Shown here one piece after another: positions 525 to 35,786 of a DNA stretch of 64,000 nucleotides. The notes under the pieces are model-generated. The model was not told the origin of the DNA, did no database searches, and saw only the letters and a list, made by a program, of their open reading frames with translations. Where the stretch lies: NCBI RefSeq assembly GCF_045037415.1, contig NZ_CP173438.1; one strand, given 5' to 3'. How positions within the stretch are numbered: the first letter of the stretch is position 1; each line of letters starts with the position of its first letter. A program made the translations under genes and the position numbers. This DNA comes from Escherichia coli (GTDB lineage: Bacteria; Pseudomonadota; Gammaproteobacteria; Enterobacterales; Enterobacteriaceae).

Positions 525-619
525 TGGCGGAAGATCACAGGAGTCGAACCTGCCCGGGACCGCTGGCGGCCCCAACTGGATTTGAAGTCCAGCCGCCTCA
601 CCGGAGACGACGATCTTCC
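525..619 (-). tRNA. selC: tRNA-Sec (selenocysteine, anticodon UCA), 95 nt with encoded CCA
   Basis: Reverse complement of 525..619 reads GGAAGATCGTCGTCTCCGGTGAGGCGGCTGGACTTCAAATCCAGTTGGGGCCGCCAGCGGTCCCGGGCAGGTTCGACTCCTGTGATCTTCCGCCA, matching the E. coli selC sequence as I recall it, including the long extra arm and 8-bp acceptor stem. Confidence 0.93.
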
Positions 620-2303: not shown

Positions 2304-4622
2304 ATGAAAATTAGCGACGGAAACTGGTTGATTCAACCTGGCCTCAATTTGATTCACCCGCTTCAGGTGTTCGAGGTTGAACAGCAGGGTAATGAAATGG
2401 TGGTCTATGCTGCCCCTCGTGATGTGCGTGAACGTACCTGGCAGCTTGATACGCCTTTATTTACGCTGCGCTTTTTCTCCCCACAGGAAGGTATTGTCGG
2501 TGTACGGATTGAGCATTTTCAGGGGGCGCTGAATAACGGTCCTCATTACCCGCTCAATATTTTGCAGGACGTGAAGGTCACTATCGAAAACACAGAACGT
2601 TACGCTGAGTTTAAAAGTGGCAACTTAAGTGCGCGTGTCAGCAAAGGTGAGTTCTGGTCACTGGATTTTCTGCGCAACGGCGAACGTATTACCGGTAGTC
2701 AGGTGAAAAATAATGGCTACGTGCAGGACACGAATAATCAACGAAATTATATGTTTGAACGGCTGGATCTTGGCGTTGGCGAAACAGTTTACGGCCTGGG
2801 AGAGCGCTTTACTGCCCTGGTGCGCAATGGTCAGACGGTAGAAACCTGGAACCGGGACGGCGGCACAAGTACTGAACAGGCGTATAAAAATATCCCGTTT
2901 TATGTGACTAACCGTGGTTATGGGGTACTGGTCAATCATCCCCAATGTGTCTCTTTTGAAGTGGGATCGGAGAAAGTCTCCAAAGTACAGTTCAGCGTTG
3001 AGAGTGAATATCTCGAATACTTTGTTATCGACGGCCCGACGCCTAAAGCGGTACTTGATCGTTATACCCGTTTTACTGGCCGTCCGGCGCTGCCGCCCGC
3101 GTGGTCCTTCGGTCTGTGGCTAACCACTTCATTTACCACCAACTACGACGAAGCGACGGTAAACAGCTTTATCGATGGTATGGCGGAACGCAATCTGCCG
3201 CTGCATGTTTTCCACTTTGACTGTTTCTGGATGAAAGCCTTCCAGTGGTGCGATTTTGAGTGGGATCCGCTGACTTTTCCGGACCCGGAAGGGATGATCC
3301 GCCGCCTGAAAGCGAAAGGGCTGAAAATCTGCGTCTGGATTAACCCCTATATTGGGCAAAAATCCCCCGTCTTTAAAGAGTTACAAGAGAAAGGTTATTT
3401 ACTCAAACGCCCGGACGGTTCGCTGTGGCAGTGGGATAAATGGCAGCCAGGTCTGGCGATTTATGACTTTACCAATCCGGATGCCTGCAAATGGTACGCC
3501 GACAAACTGAAAGGTCTGGTCGCGATGGGCGTTGATTGCTTTAAGACCGACTTTGGCGAACGTATTCCAACCGATGTTCAATGGTTTGATGGTTCCGATC
3601 CGCAGAAAATGCATAACCATTATGCATACATCTACAACGAACTGGTGTGGAACGTGCTCAAGGACACCGTTGGTGAGGAAGAAGCCGTCTTGTTTGCCCG
3701 CTCGGCCTCCGTTGGTGCGCAGAAATTTCCGGTACACTGGGGTGGCGACTGTTACGCTAACTACGAATCAATGGCGGAAAGCCTGCGCGGTGGTTTGTCT
3801 ATTGGCCTTTCAGGTTTTGGCTTCTGGAGCCACGATATCGGCGGCTTTGAAAATACCGCTCCGGCGCACGTTTACAAACGCTGGTGCGCGTTTGGTTTGC
3901 TCTCCAGCCATAGCCGTTTACATGGCAGCAAATCTTATCGTGTGCCGTGGGCCTACGATGATGAGTCCTGTGATGTGGTGCGCTTCTTCACGCAACTGAA
4001 ATGCCGCATGATGCCGTATCTGTATCGTGAAGCTGCACGTGCAAACGCCCGGGGTACGCCGATGATGCGGGCCATGATGATGGAGTTCCCGGACGATCCG
4101 GCTTGTGATTACCTTGACCGTCAATACATGTTAGGCGACAACGTGATGGTTGCGCCTGTGTTCACTGAAGCGGGCGATGTGCAGTTCTACCTGCCGGAAG
4201 GTCGCTGGACACACCTGTGGCACAACGATGAACTCGACGGTAGTCGCTGGCATAAACAGCAGCACAGCTTCCTGAGTCTGCCCGTTTATGTGCGTGATAG
4301 CACCCTACTGGCGCTGGGCAACAACGATCAACGTCCCGATTACGCGTGGCACGAAGGTACGGCATTCCACCTCTTTAATCTGCAAGACGGGCATGAAGCC
4401 GTCTGTGAAGTGCCCACTGCTGACGGTTCGGTGATCTTTACTTTAAAAGCAGCACGTACTGGCAACACGATTACTGTGACTGGTACGGGCGAGGCGAAGA
4501 ACTGGACACTGTGCTTGCGCAATATTGTGAAAGTAAATGGTCTGCAAGGCGGTTCGCAGGCTGAAAGTGAGCAGGGACTGGTGGTGACTCCTCAAGGGAA
4601 TGCGCTGACAATTACGTTGTAA
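2304..4622 (+). CDS. yicI: Alpha-xylosidase, glycoside hydrolase family 31
   Basis: 772-aa ORF, same length as E. coli YicI; GH31-type motifs (WIDMNE-like region, catalytic Asp context FKTDFGE); 10-bp gap after yicJ (operon). Confidence 0.9.
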
Positions 4623-4636
4623 TCTATTGAAGAATG

Positions 4637-4667
4637 CCGGATACGAATGGTTTTGTGTCGTATCCGG
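4637..4667 (+). terminator. Stem-loop downstream of yicI (10-bp stem CCGGATACGA/TCGTATCCGG, 11-nt loop), no T-tract
   Basis: Perfect inverted repeat read directly from the sequence 15 nt after the yicI stop; lacks a U-run so it may be a stability or REP-like element rather than an intrinsic terminator. Confidence 0.3.
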
Positions 4668-4916
4668 TAAATAATCTCACATCTGGTAATAAATATTTCT
4701 TCCATCGTATTTGCGAGCATGATCACGATTATTCATCACGAAAATGTGATCTGTGCTGAAAAATATCCCTTAACCGCCTTGCTTTGTTTTATCACTGTCC
4801 GGATTACGGACAGATTTTAGTATTGTTGTGAAATTATTCTGCTTTATATTTACCCTCAGAGATGGCAACTGAAGCTCTTCCATATGGGGCTTCTTAATCT
4901 GTGATAAGGGTAAAAA

Positions 4917-6470
4917 ATGCAAATGATTACCTCGCGACAAAACAGATTATTACGATTCCTTTTACCTCGAAGGGAATATACGACTATTGTTACGATTGCC
5001 GGCTATTTAAATGTTTCGGAAAAAACCATTCAACGTGATTTACGTTTACTTGAGCAATGGCTGGGACAATGGAGAATAAATGTTGAGAAGCGTGCTGGCG
5101 CGGGTGTGATGTTAAGCGCGGAGAATATTGCTGATTTGCTGCATCTTGATCATTTGTTGGTGGCAGAATGTGAAGAGATTGATGGTGTAATGAATAATGC
5201 CAGGCGCGTTAAAATAGCGTCGCAGTTATTAAGTGAAACACCGAATGAAACGTCGATCAGTAAATTGTCAGAACGCTATTTTATCAGCGGAGCCTCTATT
5301 GTTAATGACCTGAGAGTAATTGAGTCCTGGCTTGCGCCGTTGGGGTTATCGTTGATCCGCAGCCCAAGTGGTACGCATATTGAAGGTAGTGAAGGGCAAG
5401 TCCGACAGGCAATGGCATTACTGATTAACGGCATTATTAACCATAATGAGCCGCAAGGTGTCGTGTATTCACGTCTGGATCCCGGAAGCTATAAAGCATT
5501 AGTCCATTATTTTGGAGAGGAAGAAGTGTTATTTGTCCAGTCATTGTTACTGGATATGGAAAATGAATTAAGTTGGTCTTTGGGAGAACCTTATTACGTT
5601 AACATTTTTACTCATATCCTTATTATGATGTATCGCAACACGCACGGGAATGCGTTATCAAGAGAAGAAGATCAAACCAGGCAATATGATGAAAATATCT
5701 TTAATGTTGCCAGTCAGATGATTCATAAGATAGAACAACGAATTGCACATACATTGCCCGATGATGAAGTCTGGTTTATTTATCAATATATCATTTCATC
5801 AGGTGTGGCGATTGATGGACAAAAAGATGTTAGCATTATTTCACATATGCAGGCCAGCAATGAAGCGCGTCTGATTACCTGGCGTTTAATTACGGTATTC
5901 AGTGACATCGTGGACTGCGATTTTAGTGAAGACAGCGCATTATATGATGGCTTATTGGTGCATATTAAACCGCTGATTAACCGACTAAATTATCGTATTC
6001 ATATCCGTAATCCATTGCTGGAAGATATTAAAGCAGAATTAGCGGATGTCTGGCGGTTGACGCAATATGTGGTGAATCAGGTATTTAAAACCTGGGGTGA
6101 GAATGCGGTGAGCGAGGATGAAGTGGATTACCTGACCGTTCATTTTCAGGCTGCGATGGAACGGCAAATTGCCCGTAAACGCGTATTACTGGTCTGTTCA
6201 ACCGGAATCGGAACTTCGCATCTACTGAAAAGCCGTATTCTGCGAGCATTTCCTGAATGGACGATTGTTGATGTTATTTCAGCAGCGAATTTATCACAGG
6301 TTTTGCCTGACAATATCGAACTGATTATTTCGACCATTAATTTGCCTACAGTCACTATGCCGGTCGCTTATGTTACCGCTTTTTTTAATGATGCCGATAT
6401 TAAGCGGGTCACTGAAATGGTGATTACGGAAAAATTACATCATGCGACGTCTCGGGTCGTTGAAATTTAA
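4917..6470 (+). CDS. PRD-containing, PTS-regulated transcriptional activator (MtlR/LicR-like): N-terminal HTH, PRD region, C-terminal EIIB(Gat)-like domain
   Basis: 517-aa ORF; N-terminal HTH-like segment (TIVTIAGYLNVSEKTIQRDLRLLEQWL); C-terminal RKRVLLVCSTGIGTSHLLKSRI resembles the phosphorylatable Cys loop of galactitol-type EIIB domains found in PRD activators; AT-rich gene heading a PTS operon. Confidence 0.6.
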   Translation: MQMITSRQNRLLRFLLPRREYTTIVTIAGYLNVSEKTIQRDLRLLEQWLGQWRINVEKRAGAGVMLSAENIADLLHLDHLLVAECEEIDGVMNNARRVKIASQLLSETPNETSISKLSERYFISGASIVNDLRVIESWLAPLGLSLIRSPSGTHIEGSEGQVRQAMALLINGIINHNEPQGVVYSRLDPGSYKALVHYFGEEEVLFVQSLLLDMENELSWSLGEPYYVNIFTHILIMMYRNTHGNALSREEDQTRQYDENIFNVASQMIHKIEQRIAHTLPDDEVWFIYQYIISSGVAIDGQKDVSIISHMQASNEARLITWRLITVFSDIVDCDFSEDSALYDGLLVHIKPLINRLNYRIHIRNPLLEDIKAELADVWRLTQYVVNQVFKTWGENAVSEDEVDYLTVHFQAAMERQIARKRVLLVCSTGIGTSHLLKSRILRAFPEWTIVDVISAANLSQVLPDNIELIISTINLPTVTMPVAYVTAFFNDADIKRVTEMVITEKLHHATSRVVEI

Positions 6471-6496
6471 TGTCAGAATTTTATGAGGTATGACGA

Positions 6497-6967
6497 ATGG
6501 ACATAACAAAAATCCTGAATACGAATCGCGTTATTTTAGATATGCAAGCGACGAATAAAGCGGAGGCGATTGAAGAATTAACTAATCTTCTCAAAAAAGA
6601 TGGTGCGATCGATTGTCGGGAAACCTTTATTAAAGATGTCTGGCAGCGCGAAGCGGAAGGCTCGACTGGTTTTGAAAATCATATTGCGATCCCGCATGGT
6701 AAATCTTCAGCTGTGATTAATACTACGCTGGCAATTGGCCGTACCCGCCAGGATATTCCCTGGGAAACGCTGGATGGCAGTAGCGTGCGCTGTATTATTT
6801 TATTTGCGGTACGTCTTGAAGATCAAAATACCACCCATATCCGTTTACTTTCCCAGGTCGCGGGCGCGCTGGCGGATGATGACATCATAGAACAATTGTT
6901 AGTTGAGACGAGTCCGCAAAAAATCATTGATCTCTTTAGTCAGTATGCACAATCCGATGTCTGCTAA
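6497..6967 (+). CDS. PTS EIIA component, fructose/mannitol (type 2) family
   Basis: 156-aa ORF with the EIIA-2 His motif context (NHIAIPHGKS); RBS-spaced 26 nt after the regulator gene. Confidence 0.7.
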   Translation: MDITKILNTNRVILDMQATNKAEAIEELTNLLKKDGAIDCRETFIKDVWQREAEGSTGFENHIAIPHGKSSAVINTTLAIGRTRQDIPWETLDGSSVRCIILFAVRLEDQNTTHIRLLSQVAGALADDDIIEQLLVETSPQKIIDLFSQYAQSDVC

Positions 6968-6984
6968 ATAACAGGGAGTATGTC

Positions 6985-7299
6985 ATGAATATTGTCTGTG
7001 TTGCCGCCTGTACGGCGGGTATTGCTCATACCTATATTGCTCGTGAAAAGTTAATCAAAGGAGCAAAAGCTCTGGGCCATACCATTAAAGTTGAAACCCA
7101 GGGAACCATTGGTACAGAAAATGAATTACAGGCGGCAGATATCTCTGCTGCTGACGTCGTGATTCTTGCTGTAGATGTGAAAATAAAAGGAGAAGAACGC
7201 TTCACCAATAAACGTATTGTGCGAGTAAAGACAGAGATCGTCATTAAGTCGCCCGTTCAATTTCTTGAAAAGGTCGAAAAATCACTGGGAAACAAATGA
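6985..7299 (+). CDS. PTS EIIB component, fructose-type
   Basis: 104-aa ORF; N-terminal active-site Cys loop (NIVCVAACTAGIAHT) typical of fructose-family EIIB (FrwB-like). Confidence 0.7.
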   Translation: MNIVCVAACTAGIAHTYIAREKLIKGAKALGHTIKVETQGTIGTENELQAADISAADVVILAVDVKIKGEERFTNKRIVRVKTEIVIKSPVQFLEKVEKSLGNK

Positions 7300-7323
7300 T
7301 CCTTATACTGGAGGGATCTTAAT

Positions 7324-8415
7324 ATGAAAGAAAATAAAATTACGGTTTCACAGGAAATTAAAAAACATTTATTAACCGGCATCTCGTGGATGATACCCCT
7401 TATTGTGGCCGCCGGGATATGTATTGCGTTGGGGCAAGTTCTTGGCGGTACAGATGTTGGTGAAAAAACAGGAACAATCCCGTGGATGCTTAATCAGATT
7501 GGCGGCTGGGGAATGGGGCTGATTGTGCCGCTGATTAGCGCGGCAATTGCCTATTCTATTGCCGATCGTCCCGGATTTGCCCCGGGCCTGATTGTCGGCT
7601 TTCTCTGTGGGCAAATCCATACCGGATTTATTGGCGGTATGTTGGGTGGTTTCCTGGTGGGCTACACCATTTTGCTACTTAAACGCTATATCCGCCTGCC
7701 GCAGTCGATGCAAGGACTCATGCCAATCATGGTGTTGCCGGTATTAAGCACCATTATCGGTGGGCTGTTAATGATGACGCTGATTGGTAAACCCATCGCC
7801 TGGTTACAAGAAGCACTGATTCATTTGCTCGAGTCGATGCAGGGCGGATCGCGCTTCCTGATGGGGGCCATACTTGGCGCGATGGCAACCTTCGATTTCG
7901 GTGGTCCGGTCAACAAAACCATGTCGCTGTTTTCCGATGGCTTGCTGGTCAGTGGCGTCTACGGACCAGAAGCCGTGAAATTTGTCGGCTCAATCATCCC
8001 TCCGTTTGGCATCACACTTTCGTTCTTACTGACACGCCATAAATACACCCGTGCGGAGCGCGAGGCGCTGAAAGCCGCGTTTCCGATGGGGATCTGCATG
8101 ATTACTGAAGGAGTCATTCCGATCGCCGCGCGTGACCTACTGCGAGTAGTGGGATCTTGTGTGGTGGCATCGGCGGTCGCGGGCGGCTTAATCATGGTGT
8201 GGGGCGTGGAGAGTCCGGTTCCGCATGGCGGCATGTTTGTTGTGCCTCTGTTCACCCATCCTCTGCTGTTTTGCCTGGCGCTGGGTATAGGCACGGTGAT
8301 TTGTGGCGTGATGCTTTCACTCTGGAAGAAACCGGTAACGGAACGCGACGAAGAGTTTGACGAACTGAGCGATCAAAAGCTGAAAGATGAAGAGATCACT
8401 TTCACCCTCGAATAA
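7324..8415 (+). CDS. PTS EIIC permease, fructose-like family
   Basis: 363-aa polytopic membrane ORF, similar in size and hydropathy pattern to FrwC-type IIC; follows the IIA and IIB genes. Confidence 0.7.
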   Translation: MKENKITVSQEIKKHLLTGISWMIPLIVAAGICIALGQVLGGTDVGEKTGTIPWMLNQIGGWGMGLIVPLISAAIAYSIADRPGFAPGLIVGFLCGQIHTGFIGGMLGGFLVGYTILLLKRYIRLPQSMQGLMPIMVLPVLSTIIGGLLMMTLIGKPIAWLQEALIHLLESMQGGSRFLMGAILGAMATFDFGGPVNKTMSLFSDGLLVSGVYGPEAVKFVGSIIPPFGITLSFLLTRHKYTRAEREALKAAFPMGICMITEGVIPIAARDLLRVVGSCVVASAVAGGLIMVWGVESPVPHGGMFVVPLFTHPLLFCLALGIGTVICGVMLSLWKKPVTERDEEFDELSDQKLKDEEITFTLE

Positions 8416-8426
8416 CCGGAGGCCCT

Positions 8427-9278
8427 ATGTTTGCCGATATGAAAAGTATGGTGATGAAAGCCTGGCATGAACATTACGCCTTGCTGGCGATCAACTGTAT
8501 GAATCTGGAAAGTGCTCACGCAGCTATCCGCGTGGCGGAGAAGAATCGCGCTCCGATCATTCTCAATCTCTATCAGGGGCATCTGGCGCATTTTCCTGCA
8601 CCCGTCGCGGCGGCAGTGGTTAAAACGCTCGCGGAATCTGCCTCAGTACCGGTCGCTCTGGCGCTTGATCATGGCAAAAATCCGGACTGTATTCGTCAGG
8701 CGTTTCGTGCTGGTTTCAGCGGATTAATGATTGATGCTTCTGCTTTTCCCCTGGAGGAAAACGTGCGCCAGACCAGGGCGGTGGTGGAACTCGCCGCCAG
8801 CGCGCAGCTCTGCGTGGAAGGCGAACTGGGCCATCTGGCAGATGCGCCGCGTTACGACCAGGCCGCCAATGCAGACCTGATGACGCAACCCACTGATGTG
8901 GAACCGTTTATCGCGCAGACAGGCATTGATCTACTGGCCGTCTCGGTAGGCACGGCGCACGGCATGTACGCGCCTGGCGTTGTACCTGCTATTGATTTTC
9001 AGCGTCTGGCGGAGATTTTCCACTGCTCGAGCGTGCCTCTGGCATTACATGGCGGTAGCGGTACGCCGTTCGATCAGCTCCAGCTCTGTACGACTCTGGG
9101 GGTAGCAAAAATCAACGTGGGGGCGGCCATTTTTGAACGGGGGAAATCCGCGCTCCTGCATACCCTCTGTCACGATATATCCATTGAACTGGTGGACGCG
9201 CTGAAAGCTATGGAACTGGCCTTCGAAGAAGCGATTACACCGTATTTACAGGCGAGCGGCGCTATCGGCAAAGCCTGA
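8427..9278 (+). CDS. Class II ketose-bisphosphate aldolase family protein (paralogue 1, divergent N-terminus)
   Basis: 283-aa ORF retaining class II aldolase metal/catalytic motifs (LALDHG, VEGELG, GTAHG, LHGGSG) but with an N-terminal region diverged from the canonical substrate-binding motif. Confidence 0.6.
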   Translation: MFADMKSMVMKAWHEHYALLAINCMNLESAHAAIRVAEKNRAPIILNLYQGHLAHFPAPVAAAVVKTLAESASVPVALALDHGKNPDCIRQAFRAGFSGLMIDASAFPLEENVRQTRAVVELAASAQLCVEGELGHLADAPRYDQAANADLMTQPTDVEPFIAQTGIDLLAVSVGTAHGMYAPGVVPAIDFQRLAEIFHCSSVPLALHGGSGTPFDQLQLCTTLGVAKINVGAAIFERGKSALLHTLCHDISIELVDALKAMELAFEEAITPYLQASGAIGKA

Positions 9279-9358
9279 TTCATTTTCTGTCATGGCCTTT
9301 ATGCCAGTGCAATAACGCACCGGCAGGGCGGACTACACGCTGAAACTGGAGATTTAAC

Positions 9359-34314: not shown

Positions 34315-34666
34315 AGTAAATAGCTGACTTATGGATGTGCTGGGGATTCTATGTATTTAGCTGTGGCTTTACCATTACTTTTCCCGTTTTTGACTTAAAT
34401 AGCAATTTACCCGCCAATTCTTGCTGAACATCTATACTTTTTTTGTATTTTTATGCGATTCATTGATTTCTGCAGTACGTGCAGGAAGGAATCGCAGAGC
34501 AACAGTAAAAAGAATATGGTTGCTAATGATTTTATTTGATTGATTTCTTTATTGAAAATCAACAATGTGCTTAAAAATCATTCGGGTCGGATTGCCGCGA
34601 AAGAAGTGATACACTAGCGCGTCAATATCAGTGCGGTATCAGTATTCAGGTAGCTGTTGAGCCTGG

Positions 34667-34678
34667 GGCGGTAGCGTG
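34667..34678 (+). promoter_or_regulatory. ops element (GGCGGTAGCGTG) within the JUMPstart region upstream of the waaQ operon; RfaH recruitment site
   Basis: Exact 12-nt match GGCGGTAGCGTG about 50 nt upstream of the waaQ start, in the 413-bp divergent waaA-waaQ intergenic region. Confidence 0.65.
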
Positions 34679-34727: not shown

Positions 34728-35786
34728 GTGGATAAGCCATTTCGAAGAATTTTGCTCATTAAGATGCGTTTTCATGGGGATATGTTATTAACTACTCCCG
34801 TCATTAGTTCGCTGAAAAAAAATTACCCTGACGCAAAAATCGATGTGCTGCTTTATCAGGACACCATCCCGATCCTGTCTGAAAATCCAGAGATTAACGC
34901 GCTCTACGGCATAAAAAATAAAAAAGCAAAAGCCTCAGAAAAAATTGCCAACTTTTTTCATCTCATCAAGGTATTACGTGCCAATAAGTATGACCTTATC
35001 GTTAATCTTACCGATCAATGGATGGTTGCTATACTGGTTCGCTTATTAAATGCCCGTGTGAAAATTTCCCAGGATTATCATCATCGGCAGTCTGCTTTTT
35101 GGCGTAATAGTTTCACTCATTTGGTGCCGTTGCAGGGTGGAAATGTGGTGGAAAGTAACTTATCCGTGCTGACGCCATTGGGACTTGAATCGTTGGTGAA
35201 GCAGACAACCATGAGTTACCCGCCTGCAAACTGGAAACGTATGCGTCGCGAACTTGATCACGCTGGTGTTGGACAAAATTATGTGGTTATCCAACCTACG
35301 GCGCGGCAAATCTTCAAATGCTGGGACAACGCCAAGTTTTCCGCTGTGATTGATGCCTTACATGCTCGTGGTTATGAAGTCGTTCTGACGTCCGGCCCAG
35401 ATAAAGACGATCTGGCCTGCGTCAATGAAATTGCGCAGGGATGCCAGACGCCACCAGTAACGGCGCTGGCCGGAAAGGTGACCTTCCCGGAACTTGGTGC
35501 GTTAATCGATCATGCGCAGCTGTTTATTGGCGTTGATTCCGCACCGGCGCATATTGCCGCTGCAGTTAATACGCCGCTGATATCGCTGTTTGGTGCGACG
35601 GACCATATTTTCTGGCGTCCCTGGTCAAATAACATGATTCAATTCTGGGCGGGAGATTACCGGGAAATGCCAACGCGCGATCAGCGTGACCGAAATGAGA
35701 TGTATCTTTCGGTTATTCCGGCGGCAGATGTCATTGCAGCTGTCGATAAATTACTTCCCTCCTCCACGACAGGTACGTCGTTATGA
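34728..35786 (+). CDS. waaQ: LPS heptosyltransferase III
   Basis: 352-aa ORF, GT9 heptosyltransferase family; first gene of the long core operon. Confidence 0.88.
   Translation: MDKPFRRILLIKMRFHGDMLLTTPVISSLKKNYPDAKIDVLLYQDTIPILSENPEINALYGIKNKKAKASEKIANFFHLIKVLRANKYDLIVNLTDQWMVAILVRLLNARVKISQDYHHRQSAFWRNSFTHLVPLQGGNVVESNLSVLTPLGLESLVKQTTMSYPPANWKRMRRELDHAGVGQNYVVIQPTARQIFKCWDNAKFSAVIDALHARGYEVVLTSGPDKDDLACVNEIAQGCQTPPVTALAGKVTFPELGALIDHAQLFIGVDSAPAHIAAAVNTPLISLFGATDHIFWRPWSNNMIQFWAGDYREMPTRDQRDRNEMYLSVIPAADVIAAVDKLLPSSTTGTSL

Follow-up and report, generated by a model that had tools for sequence, protein, structure and literature searches.

The frz locus of Escherichia coli: a PRD-containing activator of apparent MtlR/LicR descent without an EIIA-like domain, its neighbouring transporter-type EIIA and its predicted operator

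When a regulator built for phosphorylation by the sugar phosphotransferase system (PTS) carries PRDs and an EIIB-like domain but no fused EIIA domain, and a gene for a stand-alone EIIA starts only 26 nt behind it, does the neighbouring protein replace the domain that the regulator lacks? The question is raised by positions 4917-6967 of a 64,000-nt stretch of Escherichia coli contig NZ_CP173438.1 (assembly GCF_045037415.1), here called the window, in which a first-pass annotation, made from the letters and their open reading frames (ORFs), had noticed such a pair of genes and had implied that the missing fused EIIA and the separate EIIA belong together. The two genes are almost certainly frzR and frzA, which open the frz operon already published for extraintestinal pathogenic E. 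coli (ExPEC), and the same near certainty, a single judgement on identity and architecture together, extends to the assignment of FrzR to the DNA-binding PRD activators of the MtlR/LicR lineage, with its C-terminal EIIA-like domain lost. The answer proposed here is that FrzA belongs to the transporter and is no substitute for the lost domain. The locus is already known, and its domain layout is also a known one; the first-pass reading is correct and is no discovery. What the comparison adds is modest, namely a decayed and then lost EIIA-like domain, an invariant cysteine loop, an operator prediction and a duplication in Vibrio.

For extraintestinal E. coli of birds and humans, the frz operon is in use as a marker of virulence and fitness. 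It was reportedly described in 2009 by Rouquet and colleagues, in the Journal of Bacteriology, from BEN2908, an ExPEC strain of avian origin; the abstract of that work is said to call the regulator "a transcriptional activator of PTSs of the MgA family". The published gene list, which we take to consist of a PTS activator, the EIIA, EIIB and EIIC of a fructose-family PTS, two class II aldolases, a ROK kinase and a cupin protein, is represented here by all eight members. They occupy ~7.2 kb, about 4668 to 11900, between yicI and yicH, and we regard them as an island because in K-12 the yicI-yicH spacer is just 52 nt long, with one hairpin. The window is chromosomal, and its order is selC tRNA-Sec, yicJ, yicI and the eight frz genes, followed by the oppositely oriented yicH and xanP; the RefSeq annotation of an identical locus gives the island the same position and gene order. 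With at least 80% of a 7.3-kb query (4600-11900) as the criterion for presence, 1601 of 5426 complete E. coli genomes carry the island, and a genome paper of 2026 lists frz as a 7227-bp region (GR 27). The identity can also be read from the published frz PCR primers, whose product is 843 bp (PMC6238794): they fall at 5322-5341 (+ strand, 0 mismatches) and 6145-6164 (- strand, 1 mismatch) and span exactly 843 bp. As the two sites are both internal to the regulator gene, the frz marker of the field is frzR itself. Between the frz operon of ExPEC BEN2908 and the locus in the window we noted no sequence-level difference, the yicI-yicH site and the eight genes being the same and the primers matching. 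Reviews tie frz to fitness under oxygen and nutrient restriction, conditions under which it has also been linked to survival, and state that it favours type 1 fimbriae being expressed (the ON state); in the literature the effect on the orientation of the fim switch is only indirect, and direct control of virulence genes by FrzR is not described. The secondary literature on frz consulted here is silent on an operator, on phosphorylation sites and on the loss of an EIIA-like domain, and covers neither the sensing of sugars by the activator nor its DNA target.

The first step towards an answer is the architecture of the regulator. The frzR gene (4917-6470, + strand), assigned from Pfam, a structural model and the primers, encodes 517 aa from an ATG start, with HTH_11 at residues 7-63 (E=2.4e-14), the Mga helix-turn-helix (HTH) domain at 100-169 (E=3.9e-13), two PRD stretches, PRD1 at about 190-295 and PRD2 at 324-413 (the best match; E=2.6e-29 overall), and PTS_IIB at 422-498 (24.5 bits vs a gathering score of 23.6); neither PTS_EIIA_2 nor the CAT RNA-binding domain was matched in this Pfam search. 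The loop VCSTGIGTS, in which the first-pass annotation had recognised an EIIB-like domain, corresponds to residues 426-434 and includes Cys427 (codon at 6195-6197, + strand, in the loop C-S-T-G-I-G-T-S-H); the protein ends 19 residues past the EIIB-like domain. That annotation had named a domain search without PRD or EIIB-like domains, or with a fused EIIA domain that had been overlooked, as what would speak against it: the search found PRD and EIIB and no EIIA, and its picture of a regulator with an HTH N-terminus, PRDs and a C-terminal cysteine loop but no fused EIIA is borne out. An AlphaFold2 model of FrzR, with a predicted local distance difference test score (pLDDT) of 75.2 and a predicted template-modelling score (pTM) of 0.50, has in residues 422-516 the beta-alpha-beta-alpha-beta-beta-alpha succession expected of an EIIB domain, and this domain matches the GatB structure 5gqs weakly (E=0.41). 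The best sequence match of FrzR in the PDB is the LicT PRD structure 1tlv (E=2.7e-06). Taken domain by domain, FrzR resembles B. subtilis MtlR, LicR and ManR, which likewise combine HTH_11 and the Mga HTH with two PRDs bearing canonical histidines and with an EIIB(Gat)-like domain whose cysteine is conserved. It differs from them in having no C-terminal EIIA-like domain and no equivalent of His599 of MtlR, in the replacement of the second histidine of PRD1 by tyrosine, in its occurrence in Gammaproteobacteria and in the position of its gene as the first of its own operon.

Are the residues that would receive phosphate also retained? A homology search with FrzR returned at least 120 homologs, and 110 full-length sequences were aligned, of which 93 are short (<560 aa, query included) and 17 long. 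Aligned with LicT, His233 of FrzR (FTHILIM) stands opposite LTDHINF, Tyr291 (IYQYII) opposite IALHIV, His349 (LLVHIKP) opposite FVTHLKF and His409 (LTVHFQ) opposite LTIHIE; the LicT residues at these places are His100, His159, His207 and His269. His233 and His349 are invariant in all 110 sequences, which come from two phyla, and Tyr291 is nearly invariant across the aligned homologs. Of the 93 short forms, 92 have His409 and one has a gap there, while 13 of the 17 long forms have tyrosine. The loop CS[TS]G[IV]GTSH (C427-H435) is present in every one of the 110 sequences, one of them with alanine at position 434, and its conservation across two phyla argues for a catalytic or acceptor role of Cys427 beyond a structural one.

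The same homologs bear on what happened at the C-terminus. Among the matches listed, those from Enterobacterales, Vibrio and Celerinatantimonas are 50-99% identical to FrzR, with nearly all full-length ones measuring 510-544 aa, and the next group, at 38-43% identity and 653-684 aa, comes from Paenibacillus, Bacillus, Peribacillus and Priestia. All 93 gammaproteobacterial sequences share one end point and the 17 long forms run 132-157 aa further; as the former all end alike, FrzR is not a truncated pseudogene. The tails of the long Firmicute forms have no Pfam match even at E=10, and they have no conserved histidine at the EIIA AIPH position. In one of these proteins the tail comprises residues 514-653 or so. 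The AlphaFold2 model of such a tail (pLDDT 84.7, pTM 0.80) nevertheless matches Mtl/Fru/Ntr-type PTS EIIA structures in the PDB (3oxp, 1xiz, 1a3a, 1a6j and 2a0j, TM-scores about 0.6-0.7). From this we infer that the closest long homologs (~40% identity), which have the full six-domain MtlR-like layout, carry an EIIA-like domain whose sequence has decayed, and that this domain has disappeared in the gammaproteobacterial branch. The reverse order, with the EIIA-like tail gained in Firmicutes, seems less likely, since regulators of this kind have six domains as a standard and losing a degenerate domain is easier than inventing one.

Upstream of frzR, an alignment of E. coli, Klebsiella, Salmonella and Pectobacterium contains three conserved blocks: a palindrome TGTCC-N7/8-GGACA (4796-4812 in the window, TGTCCGGATTACGGACA, no strand being applicable), an invariant TTTAGTATTGT a few bases on, and TATATTTA ~17 nt further. 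The block TTTAGTAT (4816-4823, + strand) lies, in this upstream alignment, between the palindrome and the -35 hexamer. The palindrome, a candidate FrzR operator, has a single match in the 64-kb window (0.16 expected). In six loci from other species that were fetched via the protein, and were hence not selected for the motif, it stands before the regulator in five; its left half is degenerate in Paenibacillus, Vibrio has two copies, and in Peribacillus it lies in the spacer between the divergent regulator and PTS genes and faces the latter. TTTAGTAT is invariant at all eight sites from protein-fetched loci, both Firmicutes included. A genome-wide scan for TGTCC-N7-10-GGACA-N3-TTTAGTAT covered 100,044 species with one genome apiece and returned 80 sites, distributed over 78 loci; 63 of these sites are on the same strand as a FrzR homolog and 94-304 nt upstream of it. 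Two more precede the second EIIA gene of two Vibrio species, about six lie in loci that end too early to judge, and about nine, in unrelated phyla, correspond roughly to the chance level for 18 fixed bases in 298 Gb. Because the motif, among all these species genomes, sits almost only upstream of FrzR homologs, the palindrome and TTTAGTAT together (4796-4823) are probably the FrzR operator.

The putative operator abuts a predicted activator-dependent sigma-70 promoter at 4823-4850 (+ strand), with the -35 hexamer TTGTTG at 4823-4828, a 16-nt spacer and the -10 hexamer TATATT at 4845-4850. The -35 is weak (3/6), for which reason a consensus scan upstream of frzR found no sigma-70 site; an arrangement of TTGTnn, 17 nt and a hexamer resembling TAtatT recurs in Klebsiella, Salmonella, Pectobacterium and at both Vibrio sites. 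Transcription is predicted to start near 4857 and to give a leader of about 60 nt. In B. subtilis, the MtlR operator consists of a short palindrome and conserved flanks, and its end is 7 bp away from a TTGTAT -35 (PMC3217849); the predicted frz operator is like it in that its palindrome shortly precedes a -35 of the weak TTGTxx kind. Note also that a conserved ATCAC...GTGATC pair is found at 4712-4752, ~100 nt upstream of the predicted frz start, and includes AAATGTGATCT (about 4742-4752), a good CRP-like half-site; the pair occurs in Klebsiella, Salmonella and Pectobacterium with a spacing about one helical turn shorter. Weighed as a candidate CRP site, AAATGTGATCT has just one good half-site.

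How would such an activator be controlled? In B. subtilis MtlR, HPr acts on PRD2 and the EII domains of the transporter act on Cys419 and His599 (PMC8560693, PMC3217849), so that MtlR is governed via His342, Cys419 and His599 by HPr and its own transporter (PMC8560693, PMC3217849, PMC6148471). The conserved histidine and cysteine sites of FrzR plausibly fit an MtlR-like control by HPr and EIIA. By analogy, a FrzR dimer would bind TGTCC-N7-GGACA and TTTAGTAT abutting the weak -35 and would activate the whole operon, its own gene included. Phosphorylation of PRD2 by HPr~P, at His349 and/or His409, would be required for activity, from which it is proposed to follow that FrzR is active only where preferred PTS sugars are lacking. 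When the frz substrate is absent, FrzA~P would phosphorylate Cys427, and possibly FrzB~P would phosphorylate His233, switching FrzR off; uptake of the substrate would drain the phosphates from FrzA and FrzB and thereby induce the frz operon. The route via His599 of MtlR would not exist here, as FrzR has no EIIA-like domain. For this phosphorelay and the operator, both inferred, we have a mild preference rather than a firm conviction. The explanation as a whole (identity, architecture, phosphorelay and operator) we consider likely, a judgement in which near certainty on the first two is blended with that mild preference on the last two.

Several points weigh against this explanation. The PTS_IIB match of FrzR is barely over the Pfam threshold (24.5 vs 23.6 bits), the confidence of the whole-protein model is moderate (pLDDT 75, pTM 0.50), and, since the orientation of the domains differs, its TM-scores against AtxA and Mga are low at 0.2-0.3. 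In FrzR, Tyr291 takes the place of the second histidine of PRD1. The motif scan needed exact half-sites, and the share of frzR loci that have no motif lies outside its reach. Finally, the EIIB-like domain of AtxA serves dimerisation and not phosphorylation (PMC8560693). This last point belongs to the main rival explanation, in which FrzR works like AtxA or Mga: the EIIB-like domain would only dimerise, Cys427 would stay unphosphorylated, and control, if there is any, would pass only through the PRD histidines or through non-PTS signals. The PRD-containing virulence regulators of the AtxA/Mga type are defined by five domains and end after the EIIB-like domain (PMC8560693), and a five-domain layout without EIIA, the hallmark of that group, is what FrzR shares with AtxA, Mga, MgaSpn, MafR and AcpB, together with a link to virulence-associated traits, since frz influences type 1 fimbriae and other such traits. 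The best Foldseek matches of the FrzR model in the PDB are also found there: AtxA (4r6i, E=7.9e-15), MgaSpn (5way), the E. faecalis Mga-family protein 3sqn and AcpB (9atx), next to the LicT PRDs, the matches to AtxA, MgaSpn and 3sqn having E-values of 7.9e-15 to 6.7e-11 over about 490-550 alignment columns with a predicted model as the query.

However, the whole phosphorylation loop is present in each of the 110 homologs, which span two phyla, but is missing from AtxA, where the aligned place reads YTSQGCIH. The AtxA/Mga group is described only in Gram-positive pathogens, its PRD histidines are not positionally conserved and it has no EIIB cysteine loop, while in FrzR the histidines stand at the canonical LicT/MtlR positions, apart from the second of PRD1, which is Tyr291. 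The NCBIfam model for AcpB/EbpR/MafR gives FrzR 83.8 bits, under its cut-off of 130, and covers only the N-terminal 160 residues (E=1.5e-23). Lastly, frzR is located in a sugar PTS operon. We therefore consider an AtxA-like mode of action improbable, though it is the alternative that deserves most attention, and we retain the MtlR-like phosphorelay as the preferred mechanism.

The role of the neighbouring EIIA can now be addressed. The first-pass annotation was right in placing a separate 156-aa EIIA-2 protein 26 nt behind the regulator: frzA (6497-6967, + strand) encodes a stand-alone PTS EIIA of the Fru/Mtl/Ntr family with PTS_EIIA_2 at residues 6-149 (E=3.8e-35, 121.4 bits vs a gathering score of 27), and FrzA passes the fructose-type IIA model TIGR00848 (127 bits vs a cut-off of 103.5). 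Its active-site His67 (codon at 6695-6697), in AIPHG, is invariant in eight orthologs and aligns with the solved EIIA(Ntr) and EIIA(Mtl). The spacer between frzR and frzA (6471-6496) is 26 nt long and contains a GAGG ribosome-binding site; because a scan found no terminator-like site between them, the two genes are very probably co-transcribed. Behind them follow, on the + strand, frzB (6985-7299; fructose-type PTS EIIB, 104 aa, PTS_IIB E=4.4e-19, TIGR00829 100 bits vs a cut-off of 76.85) and frzC (7324-8415; fructose-type PTS EIIC, 363 aa, TIGR01427 311 bits vs a cut-off of 157.55). The order regulator-EIIA-EIIB-EIIC-aldolase is kept in Klebsiella aerogenes, where it is also beside yicI, and in Salmonella, Pectobacterium and Paenibacillus, and Peribacillus has the same genes with the regulator divergently transcribed.

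On this evidence FrzA is most probably the A subunit of a split fructose-family PTS transporter (FrzA/FrzB/FrzC) and no stand-in for a lost regulator domain, since a stand-alone EIIA coexists with regulators that have retained an EIIA-fold tail. Here the link implied by the first-pass annotation fails: the Firmicute relatives have the EIIA-fold tail and also the same stand-alone EIIA, with which FrzA shares 57-62% identity, above the ~40% seen between the regulators. The competing view is that the domain lost by the regulator lives on in the stand-alone EIIA, set free by gene fission, or that this EIIA was recruited as a dedicated regulatory EIIA with transport as a secondary role. In its favour, the EIIA lies directly behind the regulator in 47 of 48 species-representative loci where this could be scored, its start being about 30-61 nt past the end of the regulator match, and in two Vibrio species one EIIA goes with the regulator and another, headed by its own operator, with EIIB-EIIC, which looks like a division of labour. 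But FrzA exceeds the cut-off of the transporter-type model TIGR00848, and the E. coli operon holds no second EIIA for FrzB and FrzC. As a split-off domain of the regulator FrzA was rejected: a profile comparison of the fused tails with FrzA-type EIIAs gave a probability of just 6.9%, covering the C-terminal helices only, and fission is also contradicted by the Firmicute loci with both a tail and a stand-alone EIIA and by tails that have no Pfam match. Fission or recruitment thus appears rather unlikely, and the transporter subunit is the assignment that we keep. BLASTP of the EIIB-like domain of FrzR against FrzB returned no alignment, which points to different EIIB lineages and thus gives no sequence argument for FrzA docking on both.

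We also would like to describe the Vibrio arrangement as such. In Vibrio salinus (10584-12118 of our locus L007) and Vibrio sp. MEBiC08052 (5133-6340 of L082), the regulator is followed by EIIA-1; behind this the operator motif occurs once more and precedes EIIA-2, EIIB and EIIC. The EIIA-1 of V. salinus no longer has the second conserved histidine (NTTS instead of NTTH).

The remaining alternative, that FrzR is an RNA-binding antiterminator acting on a leader hairpin at 4795-4813, is very unlikely: it draws on the RefSeq name, on the two PRDs that FrzR shares with the BglG/LicT antiterminators and on a scan that flagged a stem-loop with a T-rich stretch at these positions, but FrzR has two HTH DNA-binding domains and an EIIB-like domain in place of the CAT RNA-binding domain, in other species the stem is followed by a run of only three T, and the conserved -35/-10 pair comes downstream of the hairpin. 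The scan's call of the palindrome as a terminator was rejected in view of its position upstream of the conserved promoter hexamers, the short T run elsewhere and a regulator that has no RNA-binding domain. The RefSeq name of FrzR (WP_001296537.1), "BglG family transcription antiterminator", is misleading, given its two HTH DNA-binding domains and the missing CAT domain, and it is likely to mislead automated readers.

A wider evolutionary reading can be offered tentatively, as a possibility to which we give less credence than to the mechanism above. FrzR may be a Gram-negative link between the MtlR-type activators of sugar operons and the AtxA/Mga-type virulence regulators, one that has shed the EIIA-like domain and kept every canonical phosphorylation site. 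FrzA would then have a dual role, supplying the transporter and, as a polypeptide of its own, phosphorylating Cys427, and in the two Vibrio species these roles may have been split between the duplicated EIIAs, with a separate copy of the FrzR operator ahead of either unit. FrzR would then be a natural intermediate for the proposed descent of AtxA and Mga from MtlR-like activators.

The other parts of the frz region are as follows. Just past the yicI stop codon, a hairpin with a 10-bp perfect stem (CCGGATACGA...TCGTATCCGG) at 4637-4667 is the counterpart of the single hairpin in the yicI-yicH spacer of K-12 and marks the left border of the island. Downstream of frzC, two class II ketose-bisphosphate aldolase genes lie at 8427-9278 and 9359-10219 (+ strand; Pfam F_bP_aldolase, E=8.3e-75 and 7.9e-91, respectively). 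The second passes its subfamily model strongly (526 bits vs 405). The first is under every NCBIfam cut-off (best 209 bits vs 343), with most matches ending near residue 235, and its product may be a diverged or non-catalytic partner. Genes for a ROK-family sugar kinase (end at 11199) and a D-lyxose/D-mannose isomerase of the cupin type (end at 11860) share the interval 10234-11860 (+ strand) with overlapping ORFs. The island ends with a terminator-like hairpin followed by a T run at 11870-11895 (+ strand), just ahead of the yicH stop codon.

Outside the island, the selC tRNA-Sec gene is found at 529-619 (- strand), and in an identical genome a RhuM-family virulence gene lies just past it, which indicates that the start of the window is the edge of a selC-associated island. 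An Rfam scan of the whole window matched only this tRNA-Sec and a JUMPstart element, with no match in the frz region. The JUMPstart RNA element (34640-34678, + strand, 55.2 bits) is an ordinary one and lies ~50 nt upstream of the ORF that starts at 34728, from which a run of same-strand ORFs extends, presumably the lipopolysaccharide core (waa) genes.

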